Shown here piece by piece: positions 16,881 to 63,309 of a stretch of 64,000 nt of DNA (the first letter of the stretch is position 1; every line of letters begins with the position of its first letter). Origin of the DNA: Takakia lepidozioides. Its lineage: Eukaryota > Plantae > Bryophyta. The stretch is from assembly GCA_030704615.1 (NCBI GenBank), contig CM060731.1, forward strand, positions 38,502,001-38,566,000, given 5' to 3'. Below the pieces are notes generated by a model that searched no databases, was not told the origin of the DNA, and worked only from the letters and a program-made list of their open reading frames with translations. The position numbers and the translations under genes were made by a program.

Positions 16881-16966
16881 ATGACAGTTTAGCCATTTCT
16901 CCAAGGGGTTTAGCCACGAAGCTAGGGTTTGTGTCTCTTGGACTCTAGGCTTCTTTGCACCGAGCT

Positions 16967-20500: not shown

Positions 20501-20604
20501 TTACAAGAGCTGGACGACTATTTTCTCCCGGACGGTCCTCTGCCTCGACTACGTATTTCCGCCAACAACTGAGGAGATGGTGAATCCGGACGACCACATT
20601 CAAA
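17510..20604 (+). pseudogene. Multi-exon ParB/Srx-like domain gene (copy 1), disrupted and 3'-truncated
   Basis: YRPLNVKHKDEV..HPVYLIP..FFVIGGQHTIIAAK (18282-18600) fits the ParB/Srx nucleotide-binding strand-loop. Further coding segments at 17648-18277, 18715-18960, 19230-19430 and 19560-20600 with splice-like junctions and stops. Confidence 0.6.
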
Positions 20605-20929
20605 CTGTACCATCTCGGTAGGCAGAGAGACCGTCAAAGGAAGTGCACTCCGCACTCTACGTTGCTCAGCCATAGCCAAACTGATAATCCAGGTCAAGCA
20701 ATTGAGATCCATTGCTTGCCCCAACACCTGACGACGTGATGCCTCAGAAAGAGAAGGCACCGCCGTGGTCCCAGTGGAAAATCCCATAGCCCGCTCTCGC
20801 TCGTCAGCATTAGGCTCCACTAACTGTTGCAACTGAGCATCCCACAGGAGGCCAGGTCCACCATCCCGAAAAGCATGGGATCCTGGGAAGCTGAGCAGTG
20901 TAGGTAATGCTGCTCGTGGTTGACCCACC
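20605..20929 (-). repeat. 325-bp fragment of the Gypsy DNMT C-terminus (paralog of 11782-12106)
   Basis: Colinear, ungapped, highly similar DNA encoding GQPRAALPTLLSFPGSHAF...ERERAMGF...RRQVLGQAMD. Confidence 0.92.
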
Positions 20930-21168
20930 CTGAAAAAAACCATCTCATACCAAACTTGCACCTGATGTGGCAGTAGGCTTAGGTGGCTCTTTTGACGGAT
21001 ATTTTGACGGTCATTTTGACTGGTTAGTTCAACTACTATTTTGACTAAGTAATCTTAATGGTCTTTCTACGGTACTTATTACACCTCGGCGCCACCATGT
21101 TTGCCACATGTATGTCAAAGGGAATGCCACGTAATAGAGTCCATCAGAATTATTAAATAAATAATAGA
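20930..21168 (-). mobile_element. Possible Helitron-like 5' terminus
   Basis: The minus strand reads A|TCTATTATTTATTTAAT...ACGTGGC, with TTTTGACGG repeats. No matching 3' CTRR end was identified. Confidence 0.3.
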
Positions 21169-21764: not shown

Positions 21765-24310
21765 TCACGCGTGTTTAATAAACTTTTCAGACCATAAGGT
21801 GGCACTTCCCTGCGTGTCACCCAATGTGGTATGATTAGGGGTAACAGAGTAGTCCGGGTACGGCAACACAACCTCTGAAATCATGACCGATTTCACATGG
21901 ATATGGTAATAGTTGTCTGGCACATTTGCTTTCGGAAATCCAGTAATATATCCCACACAACCTGTCTCTATACTCCATGCTGACATGATCAAAGGTGGAA
22001 CAGTGCCATACCTAGTTGATAGCAGGTTCTGCATGGTCAACATGGATGTGGTAGGACGATGTCACAAAACTACCTTTGTAGGTTGTCAATCCTGCAGCTA
22101 CACAGCGATACATAGGGGGTGTATTGATCCAGCATCAGACAAGGAAACAAAAGAGGACAAAGGAAGTACTTACACTGTGCGGATTTTGTTGGTCACCCCA
22201 TGGTTCAGTTACATCCACTGTGGTTGTAGTCTGATTGATAGCACATATTGTGCTTTCCCTGCCCATTGAACGCTTCACTGGTTTCACCATCTGCATATTG
22301 AATGACACATGATCAAAAAATGAGAATAGCACGAATGACACACATTGTGAAGTAGCATTAACAATACAAATCCACCCACGCGCCCAAGCATTGAATCTTT
22401 TGCTCTCACCTTTCTTTGATTATGCTTTGTTGTTGCATCGGGAGGCAAAGTCGTTGGAACTCTGGCAGCAGGAAGCCCTGGTTCGGATGCCTTTGCAGAT
22501 TGTTGTGATCCACTATCCATGGCTGCAGTATTGAACAAGTAGTTGGGCTGCCCATATCTGTATGGGTGCCCTGACACATACTCAGGGATGTGTGCAGCCT
22601 TGGATACACCCTCTAACCAAGGCAGTAATTCTTCATAAGCCTCTTGCAGTTTGGCTGATCCCTCAACTTCCATGGATACGGGAAGATGCAATTATTTGCA
22701 GGGTTGGGTAAGCAAGTGAGTGGGGAATCGTCCACCAGCAAAGTATTGGTTGGATTGTAATGGCTGTAGTCCTTCCAAAACTTACATAAGTTCTTGTACA
22801 TGACAGTTTTAGAAGGATTGAGAGGGTCCACCATTCCCACAGGTTGGTCACAATAGTCTTGGTGAAGCACCATCTTTGGTTGCTTCCCAGGAAACAATGC
22901 TTTCACAATTGGAAGGACATTACTCAATGACATGGAAGACCATACACCTACATCAAAAATCTGAAGGCATCGGTCCAGAAACTCCTGACACCCAGGTCTG
23001 GAGGTGACAGTGGGCTCTAGGTGTTCCCTTGTTCGTAGTCTGCTCTCACATAACAATCCATTCAAGTCAAGTATAAGGATGTGTTTCTGCCTCTCAGTTG
23101 CCGAAGGGCAATTACCAACAACTTGTACATGATTATCATGTACAAAAGACACACCTTTCTGTGGGGCACTCTGCAAATTCATGGAGACCTCACAGGCATA
23201 TTGAGAGGGTAGTACATATGCCGGGAGTGCTACTGGTGTAGGGGACAACAAAACGGATGAACACTTTGCAGTTGCCTCAACAATATGGGGGGATGGATTG
23301 AGTTCACCTTCAGACCAACCCTCCATGTCATCATCCCCCTCCATTTCTGAAAGCCCAAACAATGAGCCTATTGTGTTTGGCTTTGGTGGCGGTGAAGAAA
23401 CTGCCTTGAACAGGTTGAGTGGTGAGCCCATAACATGAGAAATAGTCTCATTTGTTGTGTGTGGCGCAAAGGTGGTGCATGGTGGACCTGTAGGTTCCGA
23501 ATCTGGCACATTCATGCCAAGTTTAGCTGCGAGCGCAATGTTGAATGCAGCTGAGGCTGGAATCCTGCAAGGTTTCAGCAGTACCATGCATGTTACCACC
23601 TTCACTCTGTTGGGGCTGGACTGCTGTCTCCCACCCCACAGGATGATGCGGAGCAAATGCATCCTCGGTCTGTTTCAGAATGCCTTTCCCTTTCAGGGTA
23701 TTAGGTGTACCTGGAGATGTTGGATAAAGAGGTGGCCGCGGTGCAGTGAAGCTCGAAGGTGCCAGCAGTTGTACTCCACTGTAGTTGGATCCTGAAGGTT
23801 GGTGGCCACCATACTGGACCTGCCCCTGGTGTGGTCTTGCAGGGCTGGTAGGATAGAGGGAGGAAGTAGGTTGGTTGTACATAGGCCAAGGAGGATACAT
23901 ACTATGGGGATGCATTCCATAATGGTGGTAAATGGAATACCCACCTTGACTAGGATCATGCATTGGAGCGCCTGCAGGTGGAGCAAAAGAATTGTAATTC
24001 TGGCACTGAGAATCATTGTTTGGAGGTTGATAGTGAGGATACGGCATGTGCCCATGCAGATTATACCCTGACATGGCAGGATACTGTGGGTACATAAGCG
24101 GATACGAGGGAGGAGCCGATACTGGTGGATACAAGGGAGCTGGAACATCAGTCTGTGGAGTGGGCGGGGCTGGTTTTTTGTAAGGGGGAACAACCGCGCC
24201 ACTCGTCACAGCAGTTGGCGCAATAGTTGGTGCACACTTTGCTGGAGTAAGAAACTTATGCTCGTTCGCATCCTTCCCTGCAATTCCCTTCCTTTTTTTT
24301 TACTAAACTC
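21765..24310 (-). pseudogene. Pro/Tyr-rich region + FCP1/NIF-type HAD domain + C-terminal Tnp1/En-Spm-like domain (HAD copy 1)
   Basis: KHILILDLNGLLC, SRPGCQEFLDRC, VGVWSS, YKNL, NTLLVDDSP, NP (22613-23100). The last exon VVLPYPD...TTLGDTQGSATLW resembles the Transposase_23/TnpA C-terminus. Confidence 0.7.
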
Positions 24311-28493: not shown

Positions 28494-31400
28494 ATGATCC
28501 CTCCTACTGCCCATCGATTGCAAAGGCGGACACAAGCAGAACATGACGATGACAGATTGTGGAAACTAGAGGAAGCGCGAGCAAGAAGACTGGGTCTTCG
28601 GAAAATTCTATGTCCATGCAATGCCTGTCATGGTGGGAACTGGCAAACCATTGGCCGGGCTAAGCGTCATCTGCTTTTGAACTTGCGAGCGGTGCATATC
28701 TATGGATTCTCTTCCCTTAACCCTGATGCATACTTTGAAATTATAAGAAACAGTTCAAATTCCTGGTAGCGGGATTGTTGTAAGGTGTAGAGTATTGTAC
28801 ATGCCCGTTTTCCTATTGCCACGTGCCTGTATTATGGCACGTTCCACATCCACCATTTCCAACCCTAAACTCCTCATCTTATTGTGGATTGACATGTGGA
28901 CTGATATGCTTATAAGCAGGAAAACTCTGGAGACGAACATGAGGGGTTTAGAACGGAAACCAGCCCTGCATGTGGTCCTGATACCTTGGATCGTAATCTT
29001 GACATGCTTAGAATGCTCCGGGAGACATTCGCAACTACATATAATGGGGTGCAAACTGGTGCACATGAGGAACCGGGAGATGGAACACAGGGCCAATGGG
29101 ACACAGATGGAGTGCCAGAGCAGACTGATGGTGGACTGAAGAGCGATGTTGATCGTGGTGCAGCGAGTGCCTTACGTTTTGAGCAGGAGGCATCCAGGGC
29201 TTTGTATGTAGGGAGTTCTTCCTCTCGATTGTCTGCTACCTTACTGCTGTTAAATGCTTGTCAAACCCATGGTGTGTCAAACACCTTTGTCGATGAACTC
29301 CTTACATTGTTAGGAAGACAACTGTTGCCAGCAGACAATTGCCTGCCAAAGTCCCACTATGAGGCAAAACAACTCATAATGGAATCCGGGCTTCATTACG
29401 AGAGTATACATGCATGTCCGAAAGGTTGTGTGTTGTTCAGAAGGGAGCTTCAAAATTTGGAGGTTTGTCCAAAATGTCAGGCATGTCGTTATGTGGTGGG
29501 TACGAAGACACCAGTACCTCGTAAGGTCCTTCGACATTTCCCTATCATTCCAAGGCTGCTTCGAATGTATAAAGTCAAATCCATCTCAGAGTTATTGTCA
29601 TGGCACTTTAAGAATCGAAGTTTGGATGGCTTGGTTAGGCACCCAACAGACAGCAAGGCTTGGGCCCACATTGACCAAAAATGGCCTGAGTTTGCAGCGG
29701 ACCCCAGAAATCTGCGATTGGGTCTCGCATGGGATGGTGTCAATCCTTACAGTGATAAATCAAACAAATGGTCAACTTGGCCTGTCATGTTGGTAAACTA
29801 TAATCTTCCACCATGGCTGTGTACTAAGCCATTTTCACGATGTTGGCTTTATTGATTCCTGGACCACAATCTGTGGGAAATGACAATGCAGATGTTTATT
29901 TGCAGCCCTTGTGGATGAGCTGAAATTGTTGTGGGAAGTTGGTGTGGAGGCATTGGATGGAAGTAGCCTAGTGGGGCAACAGTCATTTCGCATGAGGGCC
30001 ATCTTGATGTGGTCAATCCACGACTTTCCAGCTTATGGGTTGCTAGCAGGATGCGCACACGGGGGATACAAGGCCTGCCCAGCTTGCGGCCCTAATGTTG
30101 ATTCCAGGTACTCCAAGGCATGCAAAAAAGTTTTGTATCTTGGTCATAGGAGATACTTGCCTGCTATTCATCCCTATAGGAATAACTCGTCCCACTTTAA
30201 TGGACATGTGGAACATAGAGCAGCTCCTATGGTGGTCACTGCAAGTGAGCAATTTGACCGGGCTACAACCAGAGAGTTTGTATCTCGCAATGGGAGGGGC
30301 TGAGGGGGGAACTGGACCCTTCAAAGGAACATGGCATGAAACGGGTCACTGTTTGAACCGATTGCCATACTGGAAAGACTTACTCATCCGATACACACTG
30401 GATATGATGCATTGTGAAAAAAATTTGTGTGAGAATGTGCTGAGAACCATTCTTGGGGAGAAGGACACAGCCACATCTAGGAAGGATATGGAACTCAATG
30501 TCATTCGTGAACACTTGTGGTTGAGACCCCTCCCTCTCACCCGAACAAGTTGGTCAAGCCTTTGGCCCCATATGTTCTTACTGAAGATGAGAAGGTGCTG
30601 TTTTTGGAAACATTGGCTGCAGTAAAGGCCCCCACAGGTTATGCTGCCACATTCCAGAAACATGTGGCTGACAATAAACTGTCTACAATGAAACCCATGA
30701 CTACCATGTAATGATGCAGCAGATTTTACCTCTTTGCATTCGAGGGGTATTGGGAAAGGGTCCACGGATGGCAATTATGAGGCTTTCTCGAGGCTTCCAA
30801 AAAGTGTGTGCAAAGATCATTAATCCAGCTGAGGTACCGGCCCTTAAAAGAAGATGTTGCAATCACTATGTGTCTGCTGAGAAAGAATTCCCTCCGTTAT
30901 TTTTTGATATCATGACTCACTTGCTTGTACACCTTATGGACGAATTGGAGGTGTGTGGTCCCGTGTCTAGCCGTTGGGAATGTATCCTATGGAACGGTAT
31001 ATGAAGTACATTAAAAGGCTATGTAAGGATTATGAGCCGACCTGAAGGGAGCATGGGCGGAAGGGTATGCTTTGGATGAGGCCCTAGGGTTTCTAACTGA
31101 GTATATGGCTGAATTTCATGCTACAAGCCGAAGGGTGTGGGACTCCAATGAAGAAGACTCAGTTAGTGGGGAGGTGGTTGAAGGATTGGGAACTGTACGA
31201 GTCCTCACCATTCAAGAACGAGACAGTGCACACGAGTATATTTTGCACAACACAGATTGCATGAAACCATTCCTTGAGTAAGTATGTTGCTTATCATATC
31301 CTGTGTGTTTCATTTCTGCCAATGGTATAAGCTGTAATCCTAATTTGCAATTCTCATTTGGACAGGGCCTATGAAGAGGAGATGGCACTCATAGAAGCAT

Positions 31401-33378: not shown

Positions 33379-35689
33379 AAAGCACTGGCGCTTGATAGGG
33401 TGGGGCAAAATTCAGGCTGGGGTGATCATTGATATCCCGGACGCAATGTAAAAAAGACGGTTGTGAGTGAAGGACACCCGTAGCAAAAAAACCCTGCTGT
33501 CTCAAAAAAGGAGGCAGTCACAAAGAGCAAGGCACTTTGTCCAAGCTTCTCGAATCTAGCAACAATGTGGACAGGGATTGAGTCATTGGGAACAATTTAT
33601 GTAAGGTGGCGAAGAAAACCTTGTCTGAGGATCACTGGATATTTCTCTAGTACGGTTGGACTAGTAGAGATTGAAATCCGTGCTCAGCTCAGCTTCAGAC
33701 TGTCTCATTGTGAAGGGTCACGGTTGACTGGACAGAAATGGGATTGACATTGCCGGGCTCCAAATCTCTGAGACGACATGTGGTAGTTTTATCTATAGCT
33801 TCTCAAAGCAATTGTTTTACATTGTTCATTATAGTGTGACATTCTCATAACGATATTGTCGTCAGCTGCATGAGCAGTGCATCTTTTTGGATTGTTGGTC
33901 CCCATAACCCTAATAACCTTTTTGAACTTTTTAAATTCTCTAAACAAAAGTCTATGTGTTATGTCGTCCAGGGCATGTTGAATAGAGGTGGAAGTCATTT
34001 TATCCATCCATCTTCCACCTGGATGGTCAATGGGCCAAGTCATATCCACCTTGATGGTCAATGTGCCACGCCATATAGTTGCCCCAAATTCCTGTAGGAC
34101 ATCTGACACTCACCTCACACTCCATGACTCATTTGACACTCATGTCAAATGCCCCATATGAATTATCTTGGTCAACATTTGTTGACCGTATGGGTGTCAT
34201 TCGAGTGTGAAATTTGTAACACCATGTGGCTTTTCCTACAATGATCCAAATCACACCTTGCCTCGTCTCACATGGGTGTAAGAAGAGCCGTTCAAAGTGC
34301 CAGGTGTGAACTATGGGTGGTGTTGGAAAAACCGGTTTCTGTAGTAGTGCAGCCTGCCCAGGGATCTCAGCAGCCGACTCCAAAAACGGTAATGATCTCA
34401 ACTCCATTCTTCCGTTTGTCTACTTTGGGATTTCTCAAATTGAAATTAATAATGAACTCTTCTGTTATTCCACAGGACAACATGCATTACCCTCCAGTCG
34501 ACTATTCCCTTTCTGTCAATCCAAACGATCTGCATTTCCTTCCTTGGGGACCGAACGGATGCCGGCCAGGATACTACGTCCTGGTTCTGGACATCGGTTA
34601 CCTTTGTGAGGTTTTCCTAAAGGATGGAAAGAAAACACGTCCTGCCATCTAGCCTTGTATCTCCGCAGGGAAATTCAAGTTAGCTGCGCGAAACGGTCTT
34701 GACGAATTCGTTAAGTGGGCCGTCAAAAAGTTTGCCGTTTGTTTTTGGAACACTGGACCTGAAATGAACGTCGAGACTATCGCCAAGACCGTGTTCGGGA
34801 AGTACTATTCCCAGGTCAGAACTTACAGCAGTGAGAATTCCGTCATGCATAGATCGACATTCAACGAAAAATGGCCTAAAGCTCCCAAAAATCCCATCTA
34901 CTTTAAACGTCTTTACGACATTTTCGTTGAGGAATACCCGACGGCTTACAAATCCAATACTCTCCTCATCGACACTGTAGACAATATGTACAAGTCCTAC
35001 TTAAACCCGTTAGGACATACCATCTTCCTTCCAAAATATAAGGCGAGCGTGGACCCTGACAGAGATAAATTTCTATTGGAAGAGCTCAAGCCTCACCTTA
35101 ACATGTTCCGGTTATCGGGGATGGATGTCATGCCGTTCAACGGCCCTCGAAGGATTTCTTCGAGGACGACCCAGCGATCAAATTTCTTAGAGACTTTGAT
35201 TATAGATGGCAGAAGTTCCTTAGCAATCTCGAGTTGTGTGCCGCTGCATTGGGACATAAAATATTTAAACTGAGTTTGGTGAACCTTGGCTGTCCAGTGG
35301 ACGTTCTTGTTCACTTGCCTGGTGTCGGTTTTTCCAATGCATTGTACCGTTCCCGTTTATCATCCTAAGTATGAATGACTCTCTGGCAGATTGGAGCACC
35401 TGTTTCTCCTCCTGCGCAAGGGTTGCATTTGATTATTTTTGACGTGAATGGAGTCTTGTGCAAAATCTTGAAGCACCAGAAGAGCAGGGATGCCTCGGCG
35501 TGAGCCTGGTCACGTGAGCGCGACTGCGCTCACGCCACGTCACCTTGCGCAAATGCCACGTCACGGGGCTCAGTCCACGTCATCACACGTGGAGGCCGAG
35601 TCACCACGCACCCAGAAAGAAGTGGAGTGTATTCCCGCGGATTGGCACCCTTTACCGCGGAAACAAGCTGGACGACATAATAAAAGGCA

Positions 35690-36050
35690 TTGAATAAATG
35701 ATGGATGAATGTACAGTTGGATGATAAACAGATGGATGAGTTTGAAAAATCTATGTAGATGGATGAATGACGGATGGATAAGAGTAAAATGGATGAATGT
35801 ATAATGGATGTTGAGCAATGACAAAAATTCATGACAGGAAGATGCATGACCAAATCTTTTGACGAATGCACAAAGTATATGAAATGAGTGTGGAAGGTTT
35901 GTGGGGTGGATTAAAGAGTACAGAGGATGAATGTACAATGGATGTTGTACAAAGGAAGCTTTCATGAATGGAGCACGCATGAATACAGTGTAGATGAATG
36001 CACAATGGATATGAGAAGAGTCAGGAAGGTTTGTGAGATGGATTCATACA
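35690..36050. repeat. Degenerate (ATGGATGA) low-complexity tract
   Basis: Repeated atggatgaat / gatgaatg units downstream of the MTase gene. Confidence 0.7.
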
Positions 36051-36173
36051 TATAGCAATTTAAACGAAAGTTGATTCTGTGATTATTATTTGTTCTAAAG
36101 GAACAACTACGGTAGAGTAAGGGGATTCAACGTTTTCCAGATAATATGAAAATGAATATTAAAAGAATACAGT

Positions 36174-39100
36174 TCAGTCTGACTCAGAGTCAGTACAATG
36201 TATCCCCTCTTCCTCTGCATCTAAGTCTAAGTATTTTAGAACACCGGATCCACGCTGGATACACCTACGGCTGGCCACTAAAAAGTCAGGGGATAGGGAC
36301 TCGGACGCGTGAAGTGCCATTGCTTCGGCATAAACAGGAGCAGAAAATTGGAAAGGGGGCTGTCGAAAACAGACTCGCCAGAAATGACTGTATCTCCTGA
36401 AGATCCACCGCTGGCTTTCCTGAAAGACAGCCGGAAAAAGTTATTACTGTAACTTTGATGTTATCGAGAAATTGAGTATGACTCCCAAAGAGGGTTTAGC
36501 ACTTACTCACATGAAAAGTCGTTGTCGACCTGCTTATCTTCGGGATCGTCATCATTTCGAATATGAATCCGATCAGTCTGTGTGCCTGAAGTGGAGCCAG
36601 ACAAAAGGGGGAGGAGCACTGTGTTGTAGAGGTCAGAATCACCCTCCATACCAAAAAGGCTTCTTCCGCCTGCCTTGCATGCGTGGTAAGTTGCTCCTGC
36701 ACCAGACAGGAGAACATAAGCAGTTTGGAGGAGGGGATTTAAGCAGATGAAACTGTTGAAAGGAAACCAATTCGGAAGGGAGAAAACGAACCTGTGGACA
36801 CAGAAAGATCGACCACCCGTGCAGAGCGGTGGCTGCATGACTCCAGCAGTATTTGCATGAATGCTGGTGACTTTTCCTTTGCACCTCTCCAGGGAGTGCC
36901 ATCTGGTCTCTTCAGAGTCTGACTGGACTGCATGAAGTTGTACAAAATGTCATCACATGGGGCTCATAGGGGGGTTGACGAAACAACCCTGGTCAGAAAT
37001 CTCAAAGCTGCGGATGGAGGATGGTGTCTTTGATGTGCGAATCCTCCGCAGGCAGATCGCCTCGAACATCCTCGTCTGCCAAAGATAGCAGGTTAGTGTG
37101 GTAAACACAATCTAAAGTGGAAGTGTGTACATCGGCTATTCAGAACTCTGACACCAAAAAAACCATGAATCGTTGATGATCGGTGTCGATCATAAAACAT
37201 TCTACTAGAGTGGAGCTGCAGAGAAAATTGAAACTCATGATCAAAGCATAAGCAGAAGGCAGACGGCATACCAGCTGACCAGGGAAACCCCCTTTCACAA
37301 GGTAGAGGCTGTTCACACAATTCCATGTGCGCAAAACTTCAAACCCTGAAGACTTGAGGTATGATGCCAATGCCCGACGACTATCATTGTCACATGACTG
37401 AAAAAGCAGAAGTGTCCCTGCATCAGAGAGGAAATTGTTACAGAACCCGAATACCCAACTCCAGTAGTTGTCCTCGAATTGTTCCACCCTGGCGTCTTGC
37501 CCTTTGGAAGAACTTCTGGCACAGCTGGCCATCCGGGATGTCGAGAATGACAATGTCGGCCGCATAAGTTTTCTGCACACCGCACACGAAGGTGGGACCT
37601 GTGCTCACCTGCAACAGACATGTTTTTTATAAGAACGATGGCAAGAATGTTTTCAAAGAACGAGACTGAAATACTGCCAACGAAACATTCAGAGAAAAAG
37701 GAAAGAAACTGGAATTCTCACCAGATTGAGGAATGAGATTATATTGTCCCAGGTAGGGGATGGCACCCCAGTGTATCCTCTCTTTCGACTCTGCATCATC
37801 GAAAGCCAACCCTCATTAACAATTTTCATCTCTCCTGCTGAATCAGAACGGGAAGGGTGTGGCTTGGCATCGAACACGCACTGAAGAATGCGGGTATATC
37901 TTCCAGCACTAAAGTCCTGCCCGCTCTCCATCTCCTTTTCATTCTCCTTCCCCTTGTCCTTTTCCTTCTCTTTGGACTTGTCTTTGTCCTTTGGCTTTGC
38001 TGGTGAGATGGCTATGACATCAACAGCCTTGTCTTTTGGTTTGCGGCCCGCCTTCTTTCCCTTCTGCGGCGTTCCCTGAGCATCAGGCTCCTTGGCAGCC
38101 AAGGTTGCTATGTTTCGTTGATACTCTTCGTCAGTCAAAGGCGCCAGCATCTCAGCGTTATTGTTCAAGTATTTCATATGCTGTTCTTGAAAGGTCGTGT
38201 GCTCAGGTGGGCAGTCAAGGTACCACCCACAGTCTCTGAAGTGAGAAGGACTCCAGTCCTTCAATATCCCTGCAGTATACATGGTTGGATCGTTTGCAGG
38301 GTCCGACCACATGTCAAGATAGTCGGGAATTCCGCTCAGGTGATTTCCTTCCATAAGCACATATTTCGTGTACCTGAAAAAAGGAGATGAATCCCAACCC
38401 ACAAAAGCGCTCAGTGAGTAAGATGCAAGTAGAACAGAAAGAATAAAACATGGATTGAAATGGCTCTGACAACTGCTCCAAGGACCTTTCAGGACCACAC
38501 TACTGCTCCAGATATGAATGTCGTCAACGCCATTCAGAACATTCCATTCCATGACACTGTAAATACATCCTAATCCAGGTGAATGCAAATAAGCGATTAG
38601 AAATGACACAGACATAGAAGTGAATGTCGTCAACGACATTCAAGAATGAAGCCAAATTATTACTGAAATGAAGCAAAATCACAGGATGGAAATAAAAAAA
38701 TTGAGTAAGGAACCATCCAGGAAAACTCAATGCACATTCATAACGAACCTATCACTGAGGACCTCACAACATCACTGTATGTGAATGGCGTCAACGCCAT
38801 TCACAAAAATACAAAAAAGAAACCAATTACTTAGCTCCCCAATCCATGAAAATTGAATTTGTCGTTTTTGAATAATACAGACACAGCTGTGAATGTCGTC
38901 AACGACATTCACTTTGGATTTCTTAAAACAGAGCTTATCAAGCCTCCATATTCATCGCAAGAGGAAAAAACAATGCAGAACAACTGAATGTCTGCATTGA
39001 CATTCAGCAAAATGAAGTGATCAACCGTCATTGTAACCTCTATGGACATTACAAAAATTTAAATAACCTTGAGGACCACACAACAACTCCGTATGTGAAT

Positions 39101-41803
39101 GTCGTCAACGCCATTCAAGGACATTATCAATTCTAATCAGGGACAATATAATTGCACCCTTAGATCCTAACCAGGTGAATTCATATACTCGCTTAAGAAT
39201 GACTCAGACAAAGAAGTGAATGTCGTCAACGACATTCAATCTGGATCTAAGATTGCAATCCATATGAAGCCACAATTTTTCCCAAAAAAACAGTAGAGTT
39301 TCAAGTATGACATTTCACCTGTACACAACTCGCATCATGGCCCACTCTCCTCCAACCTGACTGTCAAAGTCGTTGGACCGTAAAATGTTACCATCTTTGG
39401 AGAACTCCCGGAAAAAACAGTATCTCCAGGTGAGACCTCTCCACTTCCTTATGTATGCCTCCAATGACATTTGGGGAGGGGAAACAATCGCAATGTTCAG
39501 GTCCTTCAAAGTCTGATCCAGCACAATGACGGCGCGCTTTTCGAGCTGCAAATAATATATTTGTCAGAATTGCAAAAAAGAAACACATCACATACTTGAA
39601 GAGAAGAAACAGCATGTTCGAATACACACCTGACTCCAAAATGTAGCCTTGTGGAGCCAGTTATCAAACACCAAATCACTGATTCCTTCCACCTTTGTGC
39701 CAGGCTGTATGGTGCTCTTTGGGAACTGATTCAAGTCCTTTACTGTTTGATCTGAGTTCCATATCTCCAGCCACCTTATTTTTGTTTGTGGGTCGACCAT
39801 CGATATGGCCAGCCGGTGCAATTTCTCCTGCTGCATCTCCGGATGCACATGCTTGTCATAGTGTGTTTTGATCTGCTGAAGGAACTCAGGACCAAGTCCA
39901 GGATCTACTATTCTAAGCTGCTTTCCGAAGGCTGACATCAATTTGGTTCTTCGCATCTCAAACTCCTTCTTTATTGCAGCTTCCACACCCTTTGATGTCC
40001 TTAGTTCCGCTGGTGTAGTGCGGTAATATTCGGATTTTCCCTTCTCAGCTGCCTCTGCCAGTTCTTGCTGCATTCATTCAAGTAGTGATTAGCTCCGAAG
40101 GGACTCTAAACATGTATTCGAAAAGTAAACAGATTACAGACTCGGGCTTACCGCATACATGTACTCCAGAAACGCCTCTCGTGTCAAAGAATACCAAGTG
40201 CCTGCAGCTCTTCCTGTTTCGCACTTCTTGATGATATTGGGTGGTAGTACTGTCCGAAAATCATCCAGCTTCATCAGACCAATCCTCTGAATTCGGAATA
40301 GTGTGTGAACCAAGCTTGTTGTCACATGCGATTTCTCTGTCGATCTGCAAAAACATTGAAAACATTGCATTCCTTAACACTGTTTTTTGAGGATCAACAA
40401 GACACTACAGAGGGAATCAAATCTCCTGGATGACTTACTTGTTCACGTCGTGCATAGCTGTAAGAAGCCTAGCGATGTCGTTTCCTGGATCCAAAACCAT
40501 TGCCTCCACAGCAACATGCTTGTCTTTGTCTTTCGAATGGTGTTTCTGAATGTATCCCATCCATGCCAGCAATCGGTGGTTGCCGTCCCAGACGTAGAAC
40601 ATGTGGTTGCAAAATTGCTGGGTGTTCTTTCCCATCATGAGGCCCAGCTCGAACTCCTCATTGGCATCTTTCCAGCACTCATCCCAGTTATCACTGATCT
40701 CTGGAGAAACTAATGTGCTTTTCCCATTTATATCCGTCAGTGACACATAAAAAACTTGTGCACCAAGTCTATATCCATGCACAAAATCACTCTCCAATTT
40801 TGTTATGTCATGGGAAAGAGGTGGACGCACAACAGGCATTGATATCATCCGGCACAGAGGTATGTCCAGACGCCCTCCAGATACGAGCATGTCCCTTATA
40901 ACCTCCTGAGAGTTTACCTTCTGGAATGACATGAGTTCTTTCACCTTGTCAAGGTAGTGCACTTCGGATTCATCTGCTTCATCTGTATTCTCTGAGCTTT
41001 TTGCGGACTCGTCCCCATCTCCAGATCCTTTCCCCTCTGATCCTGTAGGCTTCGACCTCACAGTTTTCTGCACGATGCCATTCAGTTCTGACTAAGTGAT
41101 TTGCAAATAGTGAATGGCGGTAACGACAATCACTCTGTATCAAGGAAACTCACCATGAATGGTGTGAATTCAGCACAATCTACACATGCAAAGCCGAGAC
41201 TGCCGTATTCAAAACAAAAGTGAGAGCGATAGCGAACGGCGTTAACGACAATCACAAAAGATAACAACCTGCCGGATCGGTGTTGTGTAATGACATATAT
41301 GTGCAACTGATTGGCGGCAACGACATTCAGTGTAGTTTAGGGAGAATAGTAAGTGCAGACTCTCTCTTCAAACACATAGGTACATAAATCTCATGAGCAG
41401 AATCGAATGGCGTTAACGACGCTCGCGATTCAGTAGTTCCTGCTAAAGAATGGAAGAGGAAGGACTCCTTGAAAGGCAATCACACAGACTATATGATAAA
41501 ACTTACTGGCACCTTCTTAGGTTTTGAAATTTGATCCCCTTTTGCAGCTTTCCTCTTCCCTCTCACATCTGCTGGAGTTTCTGTCTGCGCAAGGGTTTCT
41601 TGACCTTCTTCAGGTTCGGCGTTCCGCGTGCTTCCACCTTCTTCAGTGTCCCTGCGATTCATCTCTGCCTCCACAGGCTGGCGCACTCTTATCGCCGACT
41701 GTGTCGCAGCCGCTGCCTCAGTCTCCGTCTGCTCTTGTGAATCAGTCTCCGCGTTCACCTGCTGCCTTGGCCCTGTGTTCTCCAACAAACGACGCCTCGT
41801 CAT
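36174..41803 (-). CDS. ParB/Srx domain fused to a beta-class N4/N6 DNA methyltransferase-like domain (about 10 exons, a few frameshifts)
   Basis: Approximate exons 41803-41510, 41090-40439, 40344-40152, 40105-39630, 39545-39319, 38373-37722, 37608-37272, 37075-36792, 36696-36511, 36420-36174. ParB: VRPPLSHDITKLESDF..FYVWDGNHRLLAW. MTase: ADIVILDIPDG (DPPY position), FLSDAGTLLLF, EKSPAFMQILLESCS..RVVDLSVSTG|ATYHACKAGGRSLFGME (motifs X-I-II as in N6_N4_Mtase). Confidence 0.78.
38515..39238. repeat. Intronic array of 7 x 22-bp palindromes TGAATG(T/G)CGT-CA-ACG(A/C)CATTCA
   Basis: Copies start at 38515, 38621, 38782, 38890, 38985 (degenerate), 39096 and 39217; spacers 73-139 bp. Confidence 0.92.
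41111..41425. repeat. Second intronic cluster, 4 variant copies of the same 22-bp palindrome
   Basis: 41111 TGAATGGCGGTAACGACAATCA; 41233 CGAACGGCGTTAACGACAATCA; 41308 TGATTGGCGGCAACGACATTCA; 41404 CGAATGGCGTTAACGACGCTCG. Confidence 0.8.
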
Positions 41804-42658
41804 TTTCTCTCTTGCTCTGCGTCTCTCTCTAAGGGAAGTAAAATAAAGAGACTTTCTTCTCTTTCGTATTCTAGAAGGAACCCTCTCCAGCTTGACTACC
41901 ACTCTCCCTCTAAGCGCGAAAAGTAGAAAAACGCAGTGACTCTCGATTTCTTGCGGGATTGCCTGTGTTCTTGCGTGTCTCTAGAAGCATCGGATTCCCT
42001 CCCGCGTGACCGTTACACATAGTCGTTTCGTTATTAGTGCACATGCCAGCAATTGGTGTACAGCTGTTCGTATTCAGTTATGGATGTCTGACGTGTGCCG
42101 CCCAAAACAAAACGGCGTGTTCTAAATTATAACTGGTTCAATATTTAAAAAGAACAGCGAATCCCAGAAATTGATGCGCAGTCTTAAACAAATAAATATA
42201 AATGAACGAGAGTTTGATGACAAATTTTGGAATATCATACACGGTCATCCTTGTTATCCAAACCCCACATTCGTTGCACATTTGGAACTTTCCAGGTGCG
42301 CATGATCATTGGTAGTAGTATATAGATACATTTACTTAATCTGCAATCCCATTCTCGGATCCTGTGGCATGCTTCCAGGAAGTCGGCTTTGTTATTGGGT
42401 TTATTGATGAGGTTCTGATTAACGGTTTAACAGTTGCCGACACTGCCCCTATGGATTCTCTGACCACTGGGCCCACAAGAAAAGTAATTAAAATGGACGG
42501 CTGCATATCTGGAATGAATAACAGAATATGCACAGTCGTTATCTGAGCTTCCTCCGCCATATGCTCTGCTCATTCTTCAACTGTGTTCTGGAGACAGCAG
42601 TAAACCGATTTACACTAGATCTGCGATAGCAAGGTACAAACATACTCGAGGAAGGAAG

Positions 42659-45600
42659 ATGGCTTCCTCTGAAGCGGAGTTCTTCTCAGACGACAAACCA
42701 GTGCCGTTCTCCCAGGAAGTCCTTGACAATGGATTTGCAATTGTTCTGGAACATGTCTTGGCTACCCGTTTTCAGCTGCAGAATGGCTCCATCTTTTTGG
42801 AGAAAGAGGTTTACGATCTGAAAGGGAAGTTGGTGAAATATTCTTTCCAAAACCGTGATGAGACGGCTCATATCAGCCAGTGGAGAGTGCGTCCTGGTCG
42901 ATACAGAGTACTTGGAGAGCCTCGGCGAAAGTCCCTTGGGTCATATGTGACGCCCGGGACTGCTGCTTCGGTCGTTGAAGACAAGAGGGAGGTGGTGGTG
43001 AAAAAAGAACAGACTTCCTCCACTCCAATCGTTGAGCTTTCGGATTCTTCCGATGATGACATAAGTGAAATTCCAAATCCAGTCCTTCCTACTGTGGTTG
43101 CAGAAGCTGATGAAGAAGAGATTTGTAGTGTCATTCCAAAATTGCGGGCGATGGGAGGAATGGCTGGATTCAAAAGTGAGTTGCGGGGAATTGATTGGGA
43201 ATCTTTGAAGCAGGTGCCTGTGAAGTTCTTGCCGGAGACTTTTGATGGCGATATCCTATTCGAGCTGCCTCCTCCTCCGCGAGTTGGAGGTGTAACAATC
43301 ATGATGCATGGAATGGACAAGAAACACGACGGGCACCCGTGGTGCAGAACAAAAACATCCAATATTCAGAATGATGACAAGCTTGTTTTCAGGAGGACAG
43401 TTTGCAATGGACACCTTAGGTGTGATAATTTGAATTGCAGACACTTTCTTCAGTCTGGAGTTCATAATCAAAGCGAATGGAAGGGTCTGGCGGAGAATCC
43501 ATTTCAGCCTGGGACTGCCCCTCCACCGGCAAACACTTTCGTCTGCAAATTCTGCAAACTTGTGCCATCCTGCTTGGCGCTCTGCGGAGCAAGAATGTAC
43601 TATGTTGTCCACCGTTTGAATACAATGACGAGAGCTTGTGTGCATTTTGGATTCCATAACCATCCTGTCTCGAAGGGGGATTACAGGGAGAGTGTTGAGA
43701 CAGTATCGAGGTTGATCAAACAGGAGTTCGGGAGAAACCCATCCGCAACAATATCTGCAATTGCTCTTGGCGCAAGCAAGTCATTCTTGGAAAGCCATAT
43801 TTTGAGTGAAGGAGATTCTGTGGGGACTAAACTTGACGGTGCAGCATTGGACCTGGTCATGGATCATTTCTCCACTTTAAGTTCACCTAACATTCGGCAT
43901 CAGATCAATGCATTGAGAATGGGCTCTGGGATCAGAGGCTACATAGACAATATTTTGGAATTGAAACGACTGAGCAAGTACGATTACATCCAGGACAATG
44001 TATTCCCAGGTCAAGGTGCCATCAAAGTTTTTCTTTTCAAAATGTCGACTGTTGGGGAGGGCAGTGGGGTTAGCCTCGTGAAGCGGATGCAAAAGACTGG
44101 GGACTTGCAGAACTGTTTTCTTATGTTTGATCATGTGAAACGAGTGAAGGATTGGACGACAATGGCTTGTCATGTCTACGATCCAGTGTACCAACGAGTT
44201 ATGACAATTGCAGTTTGTGACATGCAATCCGAGGATACGGAATCCCAGAAGCTCATGTGGAATTCCCTGATACGTGTCATGGGCTGCCATGGGCTGCCAT
44301 CTCCAAATTTCGCAGGTTTCATGGCGGATAGTGCTCAAGCAAATTTCAATGCTATTCGTATTGTCTTCGGATCGGGCGACCCAAAAGTGCCTATGCCAGG
44401 AAGAGAGCGTACATGTCTATTCCATTGGACACAATCTCTGGAAAAACATACAAAGTCGGACATCAAACCAGAGATGCAGACTCAGCACCGTAAATTGTGC
44501 AAAGAGTACAAAGATGCTAGAACAATGAAGGAGGCGGACACTTTGTTCCAGACAATTCGTGCCTGGTGGTTCTCTTCTGGAGCTGCATCACTTGAGAGTA
44601 TGAGAGCATTGGAAGATTGGCTGGCGTTTTGGCACTTCCGGTATAGACAGTGGGGAGCAGCCATGACAATGGTACGAGGCTTCTATTTCATGCTTTATTC
44701 ATACATTTGCTTTCCATATTTTTGACTCATTGCTTTCTTTATGTTGTTTCCTGTGCACTATTCTGAAGTGTGGTTATCCTCTTTGCAGAACATGTCCATT
44801 GAGGAAATGGCAGACATGCCATCTTGCAATTTGGCAGAAACTGTGCACAATGCATGGTTGCAGCAGTCTGGGAAACGAGGTCGGGATTTGTATGTGGCAA
44901 CAACAGATGATTTGATACGTGCCTTGCAACAACAAACCCGATACCGTGATTTCTTACGAGGTGGGGTTGGTGGCAAGGGTCCGGACAAATCGGAGTTGAT
45001 GTTGCGTGCTGCAAACAGATCTGGGGATCCAATCAAGATAGCACGGGCGGTGAGCATGTATGCCCAGGGAACGCCACTTGTTTCTAGAGTTCCACATCTT
45101 GAAGGGGAGGAGAGATTCGGCTCCTGTAAGAGGAAATTGAACACTCCACCTGGTTCGGATTCAGATTCCCACAGGGCAGACCGTGATAACTTCTCGAAGC
45201 CTCGTGTTCCCCTGCATGACAGCTCCGTGTCCGGAACCTCCATTGTGGAGGAACCTCCAACACGACGGCAAGCTCCAGCATCAAACCGTGCCACTGAAAT
45301 GGTGCAGGAGAGAAACAACCCCCTTGATGTGCTTGAGTCCGCATGCCCCGACCACGTTTGGCACATAGAACGCACAAGTGTCGGGTCTCGTGTGAAATGT
45401 ACAGCGATCAGGGCAACTAATTTCGAGAAGTGCACTTCATCTATATCCAGAGGTGGTGCCCGAACTCCTGCTCCGACTTTCACGGGCTTGATGCGTCCAT
45501 ACGGTCAACCAGAAGCCAAGAACCACAAGTTCTGGTTCTGCGCAGATGATTGTGCCAGATGTGTGCATGGAACTGTGCGTCCTTCCGTAGTGATGAAGCC

Positions 45601-46173
45601 ATCTCCTCCAACCGTTTGGCCCGTGAAGGTGGGAACACATCTCAGCTTTCAGGAGATTGAAATGCTGGAGGAGGCAGGTTTTTCCCTTGCGAGACAACCC
45701 CAACTCCATGCATGTGCTACTACTCCTGCGTCCTCCCGGGTCCCCCCGACAAATCTGACTTGTGGCCAACCAAACGAGATGGAAAGCTCGTTCGGCGTTT
45801 CCCTCCAACCGCTGAACACTTTGGCAAAGTGGAGTCCGCAAGAATGCTCCAAGCTCGTGTCGGAAGCACCACGGAAGTACCCGATCCAGGATATGGTCGG
45901 GTATTCACAATCATCACTTCCACATCTGCTGTTCATGACAGGACCTACGACATCATGGTTTCCAATTTCCCCAATTGCACATGTCCTGATTTTGTGAATA
46001 TGCTATCAACCAGTTTGGGCAAGAGAGGTAAATTCATACCCTGCAAACATTTGTATTTTATATTTTTGAGGAGGATGGTTTGCGATCCCAAACGTGACAA
46101 CTTCATTCACCAGGCCACTATGAGTTTCAACGAGGTCGATACTCTTTTGCAGCGGGATACAACACATGGGTAG
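42659..46173 (+). CDS. Mutator/MULE-like transposase: GCM/WRKY-like Zn domain, DDE core, SWIM finger
   Basis: Exon 42659-44671, intron 44672-44788, exon from 44789, frameshift near 45750. DGHPW..CNGHLRC..C..CKFC..C..HFGFHNHP; FDHVKR (D1); FMADSAQ (D2); TCLFHW (CxxH); NLAETVH (E); CTCPDF..PCKH (SWIM). Confidence 0.82.
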
Positions 46174-48949
46174 CATGAACTATGTAATGTGGTATGTGGA
46201 TGACCATGATTTGAAATGTGTAATTCACATCAATTCGTCGGCTGTGCAATGATATGGCCTCCAACTATACGGAGTGAGGTCTGAGTGACAACTTTTAGGT
46301 AGTGCACATTTGTCATTGCACCGTTCGAAGTCTACATGTCTTGCTGTCGCTATGCACTACAATCATCTTTTGAAGATGATCATAACTCTCATTGTTATTT
46401 GAGGAGGGAGGAAGTCTTCTCGTGGCAGCCTTTATGGCGCACACTTTGTGAGGATATTTTGTCGTCTTCGTAATTGTAAAAGTGAAACAAACATTTGTAA
46501 TTGCACAATGTTGGATGCTGCAATTGTAGGCCTCAACGCTCATCTTGATTCTATTTAGGCAAGATTCCCTGCATTAATTCCACGGTCATAGGACCATCCA
46601 CGGTTATAGGCGGCGCATGTTAATGCTGACGTGGCAGTTGACGGACAGTGCCACGTCATCATTTACCGCCACATTAGCATGCTGACATGACGCTCACGCC
46701 ACGTCAGCATGTGTGCAGGCTCACGCCACGTCAGCTGGCGTGAGCGTACGCTCACGCCACGTCACTCCTGCGTGAGCGTACGCTCGCGCGCTCACGTGCA
46801 ACGCTCACGCCATTGCGTCGTTGCCAGAAGAGCTACAATGTCCCCCGGTTTTCAGAATCGGACTACAGAATTCTAGCTCTTGTCAGATTCCGACTTGTCT
46901 TTAGACGGGAGAAATATAGCGAAGTGTGGACAGAGTTGCACAAACACTACCGGTTAGGGATTTGGAGCTCTATGATGTACAAGAACTTGCAGCCCATTTT
47001 GGATTTTTTGCTTCGTGGTCTACCTCAACCGGCCTTCGTTATGTCTCAAGAGGATTGTATTTCATGCCCTACTTCGGTTCACCCTCAATTCAAATCAGGA
47101 TTGGACCCTCCTCATTTGTTTTTGAAGCCACTGGTCAAGGTCTGGAAGGGATTTGGTGGGCAATACACGAAGAGTAACACTCTGCTCATTGACGACACCG
47201 CCATGAAGTGTGTATTGAACCCGCCCGACTCATGTCTTGTTCTCAAACCGTTCCAGACCGTTGAGACTGATGGTTGCTATCTTCTCAAGGTTCTTCAGAC
47301 CTATTTGCTTGGAATGAGGAAACATCCTACTGTTTCAAGCTATCTTAGGAAAAAAATGATAGGGTTGAGTTTTTTTCCCAATGTTTTAAACGATCCCAAG
47401 TTTAGCCCACTCTGGGATTTTATTGAGGACAACGGTTTTAAGAGTCTCAGATATGATGCTTCAAAATAAATTATTTTTTATCAATCCCATCTCACTCGAA
47501 CTATTGAATATCTTCATGGTTTCTCTTTTTCATTTCCTTGTAATCACACACGTGAAAGATATGGTATGCTCATTTTGACTCATTTTCAGTTGAATTCTTG
47601 ACGCACATTCCGGGCAATCCCAAGACTCTGATACAGGCCTTCATACGGGGACATGACTATATCTAGTGACCTCCACTGTTCAGTGGAGGTTCACATTTTT
47701 GCATTCCTGGATTTATGATTATGTCTCTTTGGCAAGTTCAAGGAGATGCTGACAACGTCATCTGTTCCTCAAGTCCCCTAAAGGAACCCTCCGGATCAGC
47801 TGTGAGTTGGAGTATTGAAGGCTTTCCGAGAATTCACGATGGATCCTCTGTCAGACCCTTGTCCTCCCGAGAAGCGGGCGACACTCTTCTCCTCTTCGGG
47901 TCCTCCTGGGGGTAAAGTCCAAGGTGCAGGTCAAGAACACAAATATCCCGGAGACTTTATCGACCTTTCCCAACATTCCTCACCCTCCCTATTCAGTACG
48001 CAGGGTCTGGTTTATCCAACCCGCAGGGCAACCGTTGGGGACTCGGCTACGGCTCCGCTGCACCTGCTTCCGTCTCTTCCTCGCACAGCACGAGGGTTGG
48101 ATAGCCCAAATCCGTAGGAGTCAGGTGACTTAAACTCATTTCTCGCTCCTTGCTTATTCTCCTAGTTTTACTTAGTTTGGGGTCTGATATTCATCTGTCG
48201 CTCCAGGTAAGAAAATTTGCAGATTATGACCTTCCTGTCAAACGACGTCTGCATTGGAATGCAGTTCCGAGGTAAATTATTCCTTCGTTGCGTTTTCATT
48301 CCATCCAGGATGTCGAGTGCTCAAGGGACAATTTTCTGTGCTTGCCTGTTGTTGCCCCTCCACTTCTCTCGTCGTTCAATGGCAAAACATCTCCAACATC
48401 GACACATCGTGACCCTGAACTGCTCGCACAATGTTATGCACCAAAGAGGCAAAAAAGAGCCCTCGAGCCATTTCCTTCCTCTGCAGGGAATCATTCCAAA
48501 TGACAAAAGGCTGACAAGAAAAAAAGAGCGGACTCCAAACACTTGAGGACTCCCTCGGATGTTGTGGCGCCTCGTCAATCCAAGCCCGCGGGAATCCACT
48601 GTTCTTCTGCAAGACATTCCAATAAGGCTTCAATGGTACATTTCAAAACAATTTCTCTACTTTCGTTTGCAGTTTATTTTTCTGTCCCAAACTAACTCCG
48701 TAATTTTTATACAAGCGAGTAAGGAGCCGCATAACTTCTTGAATGCGCCTCCCGACAAGGTGCGTTCACTAACCTCCACTTGACAGCCGACGTTCATCTT
48801 TTCGTGATCTCGAACTCTTCGATATATGGTCTATTCTTGGTCCTTTACAGTAGTCCATTGTCGGGACACTTATGTTTCCGAAAACGTAGAGGTCATTCTA
48901 AAACTAAGAAACACTTGTTTTTGACGGCATGAACACTTAAATTGCGCAG

Positions 48950-49690
48950 GATGGTATCGTCCATCAACCTTCATTTGCCACATCGGGGAAGAGGAAACGG
49001 ATGCTGTTAATATTGAGTGTCAACGGTCTCTTTTGCTACCGGCCACCTCCAACCGGCGGTGAATTGTTTAAGGAGAAATTTTGTTTCAGGAAAGTTACAG
49101 TTCATGTTCCCGAAAGACCTTTTGTGGTTCCCCGGCCTGGAGTCTTGAAGTTTCTCAACCTTGCGTTCATGCATTTTCACGTGACAATCTGGTCATGTGC
49201 TGAAAGACATGTTCTTTGTAGGATGCTCGAGTGCTTAGTTCCTACGAAAATTGCGAAGAAGTTTTGCTTCATCTGGTCAGCTGAGGATTGCAAAGACACT
49301 ACTGGTTACATCATGCCTGGGATGAAATATCTCGTTAAGGATATTCGCACTGTTCTTGCCAAGTACCCTGGTACACCCTTTGCAACGCAGGGACAAATAC
49401 TCCTTGTTGATGATGAGCCATCAAAGGGCCTCCGAAACCCACCAAATATTGGATTCTTCCCTATTCATACAAGCCATCACCAAAAGGATTGGTTGACTAG
49501 GATGATATGACAAAAGCTGTGTGGCCATATATATTGAAAATGACAACAGTTGTAGATTACATCAGCGAGAACCCTGCCAAGTGTTCTCGTAAGCCTATTG
49601 GTCGTGACCATGCCTATTGGGCTTGGTATGGAAGATATGTTGATCCTCGTGTTTGGATCCCACAACAAAAGGAACCTGATTACCTTGGTA
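48950..49690 (+). pseudogene. NIF-type HAD domain (copy 4)
   Basis: Exon after AG at 48949: MLLILSVNGLFC, PRPGVLKFL, VTIWS, WSAEDC, LVKDI, ILLVDDEP..RNP; frameshift near 49460-49510. Confidence 0.75.

Positions 49691-60958: not shown

Positions 60959-63309
<2,351 letters not shown>

Follow-up and report, generated by a model that had tools for sequence, protein, structure and literature searches.

Clustered 22-bp palindromes in the introns of a ParB-like accessory gene as candidate binding sites in a land-plant Mutator-like transposon

A high-copy Mutator-like DNA transposon in the window—the 64-kb stretch of Takakia lepidozioides DNA analyzed here—carries eleven 22-bp palindromes in two introns of its ParB-like accessory gene. 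From sequence comparison and structure modeling, we consider it probable that these palindromes are double-stranded binding sites for a dimer of the gene's own product, for which a ParB fold is predicted. Docking sites are the likely function because related elements keep the shape of the palindrome while spelling it in letters of their own. In 2025 this design was already put forward for transposons of red and brown algae, and with the comparative evidence given here it extends to land plants; a search of the literature, mainly outside subscription journals, found no description of such a system in a land plant.

The palindromes and their conservation

All eleven palindromes lie where the original prediction had placed them. 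Seven are in intron 5 (38374..39318, minus strand, 945 nt), starting at 38515, 38621, 38782, 38890, 38985, 39096, and 39217, and four degenerate ones are in the predicted intron 1 (41092..41506, minus strand), starting at 41111, 41233, 41308, and 41404. The intron-5 sites had been described as seven copies of one 22-mer. Their number and start-to-start spacing (106, 161, 108, 95, 111, and 121, hence 95 to 161) hold up, but only three of the seven match the quoted word exactly: the copies at 38515 and 39096 each have one unpaired arm position, and the copy at 38985 has four changes at its center. The four intron-1 copies keep just 6 to 7 of 10 arm pairs. With up to three mismatches allowed, the 22-mer finds eight matches, compared to none in 100 shuffles, and CG is retained in 20 of the 22 half-sites. 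The element is otherwise depleted in CG.

In the intron-5 array, a unit of two palindromes occurs as three old copies, with one further site besides, and the length of the array differs among genomic copies of the element. Between the three duplicated units, the palindromes show 0, 1, and 1 mismatches in 44 positions, compared to 55/147, 76/147, and 63/149 outside them (37 to 52% spacer divergence), which bears out the earlier claim that divergence is far greater in the spacers. Comparison of genomic copies points the same way: among the 40 variant sites listed, of 63, 39 fall in intron 5, and none of these 39 is inside the palindromes, which span 154 of the 945 nt (naive P of ∼0.001, which takes no account of the shared descent that links the sites or of variants that may be masked where contigs end near repeats). 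The spacers are close to shuffle level, with units 1 and 6 as exceptions.

An origin of the palindromes in an unrelated MITE or satellite, which the original prediction had named as a refuting condition along with palindromes no better conserved than spacers, was rejected: Tandem Repeats Finder made no call on the array, the spacers are near shuffle level, and the sites belong to the element's copies. The element contains every one of the 11 copies in the 64-kb window, and the matches outside it are scattered singles at 5 to 7 mismatches. Across 596 Gb of prokaryotic genomes, the exact motif has nine single matches (∼2 expected by a rough count) and forms no array, and it has no match in viral contigs.

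The element and its ParB-like accessory protein

The transposon spans 35485..46823 (11,339 bp), with a contig depth of ∼10,000 within it compared to 50 to 150 in the outermost bins (run X1). Its ends are in register with a flanking 9-bp target-site duplication (35476..35484 and 46824..46832, plus strand), although a 7-bp duplication, with the element ends shifted one base outward, also fits. Mutator-like elements have terminal inverted repeats and target-site duplications of 8 to 11 bp (PMC6446971); the 9-bp duplication of the present element falls in this range, and its terminal repeat is imperfect, with 17 of 30 terminal bases complementary. At the left end (35485..35600), this imperfect terminal inverted repeat is accompanied by subterminal GCTCACGCC / CACGT repeats, which bear no relation to the intron palindrome, and the right end (46620..46823) likewise has a terminal inverted repeat and subterminal repeats. 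The ends thus bear a repeat different from the palindrome.

The element has two genes, the ParB-like accessory gene and, on the opposite strand, a transposase-like gene (42518..46173, plus strand). In the latter, DDE- and CxxH-like motifs were read by eye against the usual patterns, a C-terminal SWIM finger scores below the cutoff (E value of 0.0025), and the core has no match in Pfam and PDB searches. No ParA family was detected among the 45 open reading frames scanned, and no gene for a partner ParA ATPase was found in the element.

On the minus strand, the seven exons of the accessory gene, joined at GT-AG sites, give 848 stop-free codons. Exon 1 (41507..41803, start codon assumed) encodes a low-complexity N terminus; exon 2 (40439..41091) encodes a predicted ParB/sulfiredoxin-fold domain, assigned from the model, structure matches, and conservation, with conserved VRP, DGNHR, and terminal N; exons 3 to 5 (39319..40344; individually 40344-40152, 40067-39630, and 39545-39319) encode a helical region that is a candidate for the DNA-binding and dimerization part; exon 6 (37722..38373) encodes a lysine-rich linker and a conserved segment; and methyltransferase-like exons follow at 36300..37608 (approximate limits). 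Intron 1 is a prediction, and intron 5 is documented by one contig of run X8 that skips exactly its 945 nt; that X8 represents RNA is a guess, none of the listed runs being recorded as RNA, and run X11 has no contigs over intron 5.

The ParB-like exon is unrecognized in Pfam and PDB sequence searches, with no Pfam ParB match, and its predicted fold comes from the models. All ten VIA matches of the exon-2 model are ParB/Srx-fold proteins, and KorB is the best match of both the first model (Z of 5.8, root mean square deviation of 3.1 over 90 residues) and the second (Z of 7.1, 2.6 over 91), middling scores in that every Z is below 8; Foldseek gave no match at an E value of ≤0.001. Conserved in 85 to 100% of aligned rows are R89, G170-N-H-R173, and N217 (exon-2 numbering), which presumably correspond to the CTP pocket. 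The ParB/Srx fold also includes enzymes that do not bind DNA. No helix-turn-helix could be made out after the ParB-like domain in the models, the second of which has a pLDDT of <50 at residues 184-201 and 222-230, where the alignment is shallow; that model says nothing about the chain past residue 180, because the exon-3 and exon-4 fragments failed to align on the first row of alignment A3. The exon-3 profile found nothing in PDB or Pfam.

Both the window's protein and its relatives have the methyltransferase-like tail. Motif IV precedes motif I, the beta-class order by eye; no Pfam family matched any exon above the cutoff, and PF01555 matched the corresponding piece of the relative L001 at an E value of 0.0046, below the cutoff. 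Active beta-class motif IV reads [DSN]PP[YFW], with an aromatic residue. The window's tail differs from active beta-class N4/N6 DNA methyltransferases in that its motif IV reads DIPD and lacks this catalytic aromatic. In the relatives, most of which are decayed copies, the motif reads DIPE, DVPR, NVPS, DVIG, and similar, with an aromatic only in L050 (DIPW) and P0062 (DVPF). The methyltransferase-like exons of this copy also contain several one-base frameshifts that are not common to other copies.

Related elements and competing readings

In elements whose accessory proteins share 29 to 45% identity with that of the window, the clustered 22-bp palindrome is a different one, although its 10+2+10 shape and its CG core are the same. 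Repeated 22-mers of this shape came from a palindrome search without a sequence prior across 80 loci; none of these 80 loci has a cluster of the exact motif of the window. When only the left half was searched for, the complementary right arm was present in 151 of 189 nearby matches compared to 2 of 32 distant ones. Over 42 distinct loci, site density is 10 to 26 per 10 kb between −2000 and −500 of the DGNH codons, peaks again downstream, between +2000 and +2500, at 14 per 10 kb, and falls to 0 to 2 beyond 3.5 kb; at least three upstream sites are present in 16 of the 30 loci with at least 2 kb of upstream sequence, and fewer than three in the other 14. In many relatives the sites occupy the first intron. 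The arm variants CAAC, CTAC, GTAC, CTTC, GAGC, and TGAA sort by clade, with CAAC, CTAC, and CTTC each found in more than one clade; clade-wise sorting follows from shared descent alone. Our searches found no full-length relatives, which is weak evidence, and no relatives in viral contigs.

The relatives also bear on whether it is instead the transposase of the element that binds the palindromes, either as a sequence-specific activator or to help bring together the ends. Of the 21 distinct loci that extend at least 3 kb upstream of the ParB-like exon, 8 have a transposase homologue there; where found, these homologues are always of the same family, so that the relatives cannot separate ParB from transposase as the binder. 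Moreover, a 2026 preprint reports that the AtMu1 transposase activates cognate copies (10.64898/2026.08.24.746577). Nevertheless, we regard a transposase as an unlikely reader, given that 3.0 kb and 5.4 kb separate the sites from the ends, that the ends bear their own repeat, and that the relatives' sites cluster on the ParB-like gene and not at the transposase.

Variation within the arms speaks to a role in RNA. At the T/G arm position, G is present in seven copies and is matched on the opposite arm in only one of them; in the other six, it is unpaired, and the mismatch gives no G-U pair on either strand. The T>G/A>C pair at 38782, put forward originally as compensatory, is real, but since the G is mostly unmatched on the other arm, it represents a tolerated half-site variant. 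Hairpins in the pre-mRNA or the excised intron, with an effect on splicing or a role as a source for small-RNA pathways, are therefore hard to reconcile with the commonest variant, which produces non-wobble mismatches, even though the sites are intronic, perfect copies with flanks fold at −11 to −18 kcal/mol, and the intron as RNA folds better than shuffles (z of −5.7), as any palindrome cluster would. A center of 2 nt makes a poor loop, folding of the intron-1 copies reaches only −5 to −8, the letters themselves are conserved and not just their pairing, the relatives' sites occur in mixed orientation (CA and TG centers), and an Rfam search had no match; taken together, we judge the hairpin explanation quite improbable.

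The element is itself inserted into another, which has its own ParB-like open reading frame (18225-18644), unalignable to that of the window element, and a different palindrome, 24 bp long, in eight copies that all lie outside the inserted element. Two nested elements using different words in one genome make it very unlikely that the palindromes are host transcription factor sites forming an intronic enhancer for a given cell type, a reading that would suit clustered, conserved, palindromic sites located in the first intron of many relatives; in addition, 22 bp is long for such a site, and the arms differ between element clades from the same collections. Least credible, and already largely refuted, is the notion of functionless tandem-duplication relics whose symmetry is maintained by gene conversion or hairpin-templated repair: the intron-5 array did originate by duplication and varies in length between copies, but its spacers have diverged by 37 to 52% where the cores have not, CG persists in 20 of 22 half-sites of a CG-depleted element, asymmetric variants persist, and the shape recurs in elements at 29 to 45% protein identity.

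If the palindromes are bound by the ParB-like dimer, each half-site (∼TGA[A/T]TG[T/G]CG[T/G]) would be read by one subunit, and intronic clustering would concentrate the protein on the members of its own element family while sparing the coding sequence. The likely purpose would be to counter silencing by the host so that the element stays active, which is what VANC does in VANDAL elements. More speculatively, the protein may load as a nucleotide-gated clamp and spread as bacterial ParB does, and the methyltransferase-like domain may be a CG-binding or shielding module and not an enzyme. The original suggestion of cognate loading or methylation sites in a self-recognition module gains from the relatives and the neighboring element, which pair a ParB-like gene with a palindrome of their own; its methylation part is doubtful because the methyltransferase motif lacks the aromatic residue.

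A broader claim can be made only tentatively, and we lean against it: that land-plant transposons carry working ParB/parS-like pairs, in which nucleotide-gated clamps load at family-specific intronic 22-bp palindromes and slide over the element in plant chromatin while a dead methyltransferase fold shields or reads CG, and that nested elements in one genome use orthogonal protein-site pairs, a natural set of programmable modules against silencing beyond the flowering plants. The 2025 algal papers went no further than to propose binding of ParB-like transposon proteins to inverted repeats of their own; the present case adds defined candidate sites, conservation evidence, clade-matched natural variants, and two gene-palindrome pairs in one genome, and these defined sites, variants, and pairs make the hypothesis directly testable by cross-binding assays. 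Should that hypothesis hold, sites would be recognized in the ParB manner inside plant nuclei, and non-seed plants would possess a counterpart of VANC anti-silencing made from bacterial parts.

Comparison with known systems

Bacterial ParB/parS, Noc/NBS, and KorB/OB resemble the present system in the N-terminal fold (here predicted), in the arginine, GxxR-like, and asparagine positions, and in having palindrome clusters near the gene. The bacterial ParB site is ∼16 bp, compared to 22 bp in the window. The window element further differs in lacking ParA and in having a fused methyltransferase-like tail, and no segregation role is expected of it.

The N4-cytosine methyltransferases MpDN4MT1 of Marchantia are of bacterial type, act on CG, and have an intact TSPPY, and the paper does not mention ParB (bioRxiv 10.1101/2021.02.12.428880). 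Like the window's methyltransferase-like tail, whose motif order looks beta-class by eye, they represent the bacterial type in a non-seed plant, but MpDN4MT1 is a host gene with TSPPY, whereas the window has a transposon-borne gene with DIPD.

Also similar by description are the algal elements. In Ectocarpus, the accessory protein of Sola1-1_Ec32 (∼1,100 amino acids) fuses a ParB-like domain to an N4/N6 DNA methyltransferase domain, is encoded opposite the transposase strand, and has been suggested both to bind the element that encodes it and to modify that element (PMC12477816). Both the fusion and the gene orientation recur here, although Sola1-1_Ec32 is a Sola element of a brown alga and not Mutator-like, and the Sola passages name no binding site. 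PAG3 (and PAG2), from red-algal Plavaka and other transposons, is a ParB-like accessory gene whose adjoining tandem inverted-repeat arrays were read as self-binding sites, and PAG accessory genes move among transposon families (bioRxiv 10.1101/2025.02.11.637652). The likeness, again by description, lies in a ParB-like accessory gene with inverted-repeat arrays at the gene. As described there, PAG3 carries a fused 2-oxoglutarate oxygenase, with the methylase a separate gene that has a SET domain, whereas the window's protein has a methyltransferase-like tail; and the PAG3 arrays are adjacent and tandem, whereas the window's palindromes are intronic and dispersed in diverged spacers.

In layout, the window element resembles the VANDAL Mutator-like elements, in which the motifs bound by VANC have multiplied through tandem duplication within introns, those of the VANC gene itself among them; these motifs differ between families, and VANC function was shown experimentally (PMC5735166). 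A Pfam search of all exons found no VANC-type domain in the window's accessory gene. Both systems thus combine a Mutator-like element, an accessory gene, and duplicated intronic motifs, but the VANC21 motif, as described there, is a 9-bp non-palindromic word, whereas the motif here is a 22-bp palindrome.

Palindromes in two introns of the accessory gene

All eleven predicted palindromes were found in place, within a minus-strand accessory gene whose seven exons, joined at GT-AG sites, give 848 stop-free codons. Seven, spaced 95-161 bp apart, lie at 38515-39238 in intron 5 (38374-39318, minus strand); four degenerate ones lie upstream at 41111-41425, in intron 1 (41092-41506, minus strand). Eight sites match the 22-mer (10-bp arms around a CA centre) with at most 3 mismatches, compared with 0 in 100 shuffles; the remaining three are more degenerate. 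The original prediction described the same 22-mer seven times in one intron: the seven sites are present, but only three of them are identical to that sequence. Similarly, the copy at 38782, said to carry a compensatory T>G/A>C pair, has symmetric arms, each with G, yet this G occurs in seven copies and is matched in this one alone. All four intron-1 copies retain pairing at no more than 6-7 of 10 arm positions. CG is kept in 20/22 half-sites of the window's palindromes, and the CG ratio of intron 5 outside them is 0.34.

Exactly the 945 nt of intron 5 are skipped, with correct ends, in a single contig (95-99% similarity to the window) of sequencing run X8, one study tentatively taken as RNA. 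At the modelled intron-2 junction, homologues lacking intron 2 read straight across. Beyond codon 848, the one-base frameshifts are private to the window's copy, which is therefore either decayed or affected by assembly errors.

Within intron 5, a unit of two palindromes is present in three old copies, and there is one additional site. Compared unit against unit, palindromes have 0, 1 and 1 mismatches in 44 positions, and the remainder differs at 55/147, 76/147 and 63/149, in agreement with the original observation that the DNA between the sites is far more diverged. Genomic copies in runs X3 and X6 differ at 63 variant sites; of the 40 that were listed, 39 fall in intron 5 and none in a palindrome; the naive chance of this escape is 0.001, a value to be read with the linkage of the sites and a possible bias from contig ends in mind. 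A loose end in X6 represents a copy with one extra palindrome, so array length varies between copies.

The ParB-like protein and its surroundings

Exon 2 had no sequence match in Pfam or PDB, and Foldseek returned no match at E <= 0.001. Its model (pLDDT 74.7), compared with 48,161 chains, gave 10 matches, all of the ParB/sulfiredoxin fold and led by KorB (Z 5.8), and the model of a relative, P0115, reached Z 7.1 with KorB (rmsd 2.6 over 91 residues); these are middling scores for a predicted ParB fold. Among the ESM Atlas neighbours of exon 2 are a cluster of fungal DUF3723 and another in which ParB_N accounts for 11%. No helix-turn-helix downstream of the domain was demonstrable by models or profile comparison. 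The C-terminal part is similar to beta-class N4/N6 methyltransferases: the order of motifs fits, and a relative has one weak match to PF01555. Motif IV reads DIPD in the window and lacks an aromatic residue in all relatives read, most of them decayed copies, except L050 and P0062, so that enzyme activity appears doubtful.

In run X1, contig depth, which is not copy number, is about two orders of magnitude higher between roughly 35.5 and 46.8 kb. The element's ends are at 35485 and 46823, with an imperfect terminal repeat (17/30) and a 9-bp duplication on both flanks (a 7-bp reading fits too). On its plus strand, a transposase-like gene matches SWIM weakly. The accessible part of PMC6446971 gives target duplications of 8-11 bp as typical of Mutator-like elements; since the duplication size fits but the transposase catalytic core matched no family, we call the element only Mutator-like. 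The host is probably a non-seed land plant; named homologues are Adiantum (fern) proteins only.

As read by eye, the element interrupts a NIF-like frame that belongs to a larger, probable giant CACTA-like element at about 17.5-50.5 kb, which holds Transposase_21 (28905-29855), DUF4216, a PPR fragment and at least five NIF-like phosphatase frames (22613-23674, 34653-35273, the split frame 35430/46830, and 48941-49510). A second, decayed and very divergent ParB-like multi-exon gene lies there at 17597-20620 (plus strand). Its ORF at 18225-18644 has an RPL...GGQHT pattern, does not align with exon 2, and shares the Atlas neighbour sets of exon 2, fungal DUF3723 included; by this Atlas result it is a candidate ParB-like domain. 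DUF3723, named in Starship papers, may itself be ParB-like, a hint taken from its cluster being among the top Atlas neighbours of both domains. Across this larger element a different palindrome, the 24-bp (11+2+11) AACCTCCACTG-NN-CAGTGGAGGTT, occurs eight times, at 17530, 25939, 27114, 27508, 35282, 47668, 48771 and 50408, and never within the 11.3-kb element.

A lone right arm of this palindrome lies near 18633, and an intron of the second gene holds a 97-nt inverted repeat (19184-19406; 76% complementary, 29-nt spacer), possibly a small insertion. A Gypsy-type retrotransposon at 9800-16900 (minus strand; gag, protease and integrase matches) includes a GC-rich tandem array (16413-16887), and a 328-bp piece recurs at 20605-20932. 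The window's sole clear host gene encodes tubulin (60959-62252, minus strand).

Palindromes at related loci

A scan of metagenome contigs gave 181 loci, of which the best 80 were retained (42 distinct; 29-45% identity in the ParB-like exon); these have the exon layout of the window's gene. The window's own word forms no cluster in any of these 80. A search without a sequence prior recovered recurring 22-mers whose 10-bp arms flank CA, TG or CG: L005, for example, has CAACTTTCGG-CA-CCGAAAGTTG, and L011 has a GAGCATTCGG form. Their common core is [T/G]CG[G/T]-YR-[C/A]CG[A/C]. The pattern built from them gave 132 sites near the gene versus 16 far, a count circular by design; in a less circular search with the left half, the complementary right arm followed 151/189 nearby versus 2/32 distant matches. 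Site density has two peaks, one upstream of the ParB-like exon, the other 2-2.5 kb downstream. Where flank sufficed, 16/30 loci had at least three upstream sites and 14/30 did not. The L011 cluster sits between donor and acceptor, immediately ahead of the ParB-like exons, and the second L005 cluster lies in the intron just before the methyltransferase exon, which is not the one used in the window. Arm variants sort by clade on the ParB-like domain tree, with some recurrence, which is not proof of co-evolution because shared descent explains it. CG is kept in just 43/234 half-sites, as expected of dead, methylated copies.

Upstream clusters of L005, L007, L034 and L053 alternate the 22-mer with a second palindrome-like word (TTGGAGCTCGGAAGCTCCAA type). 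Upstream of the match by ~600-1700 bp, L065-L067 carry four copies of a different, odd-length palindrome, ATGGTT-N5-AACCAT; on the downstream side they have the usual 22-mer.

A putative reader of the sites and known systems

The fixed length and centre, the held sequence, the tolerance of asymmetric variants and the occurrence in either orientation fit a site that a dimer would read as two half-sites. We consider the element's own ParB-fold protein the probable, putative reader, because the sites track the gene's position and differ from the terminal repeats, and because another word recurs beside another ParB-like gene. The transposase, of which the same divergently oriented kind is found in 8/21 related loci with at least 3 kb upstream, is an improbable reader. 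RNA hairpins are unlikely, the poorly paired intron-1 copies being set against them. A host factor as reader is less likely again, the arms differing between clades of related elements, and neutral relics, with palindromes so much less diverged than their spacers, are very unlikely. Of the predicted cognate loading, the part naming the element's own ParB-fold protein as likeliest reader gains comparative support; clamp loading, a property of bacterial ParB, might occur at these palindromes in the same way. Downstream, the most likely role would be to shield the element from silencing, by analogy with VANC as presented in the accessible part of PMC5735166.

The literature searched contained no land-plant description of such a ParB-like accessory gene with palindromes. 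In Ectocarpus, the accessible part of PMC12477816 describes an accessory gene with ParB and N4/N6 methyltransferase parts opposite a transposase, an arrangement like that of the window's gene, with its ParB-like and methyltransferase-like parts. Red-algal ParB-like PAG3 genes, according to the accessible part of 10.1101/2025.02.11.637652, are accompanied by inverted-repeat arrays, as the window's gene is by palindromes, and self-binding is proposed there for red-algal transposons, so that the same idea is not new here.
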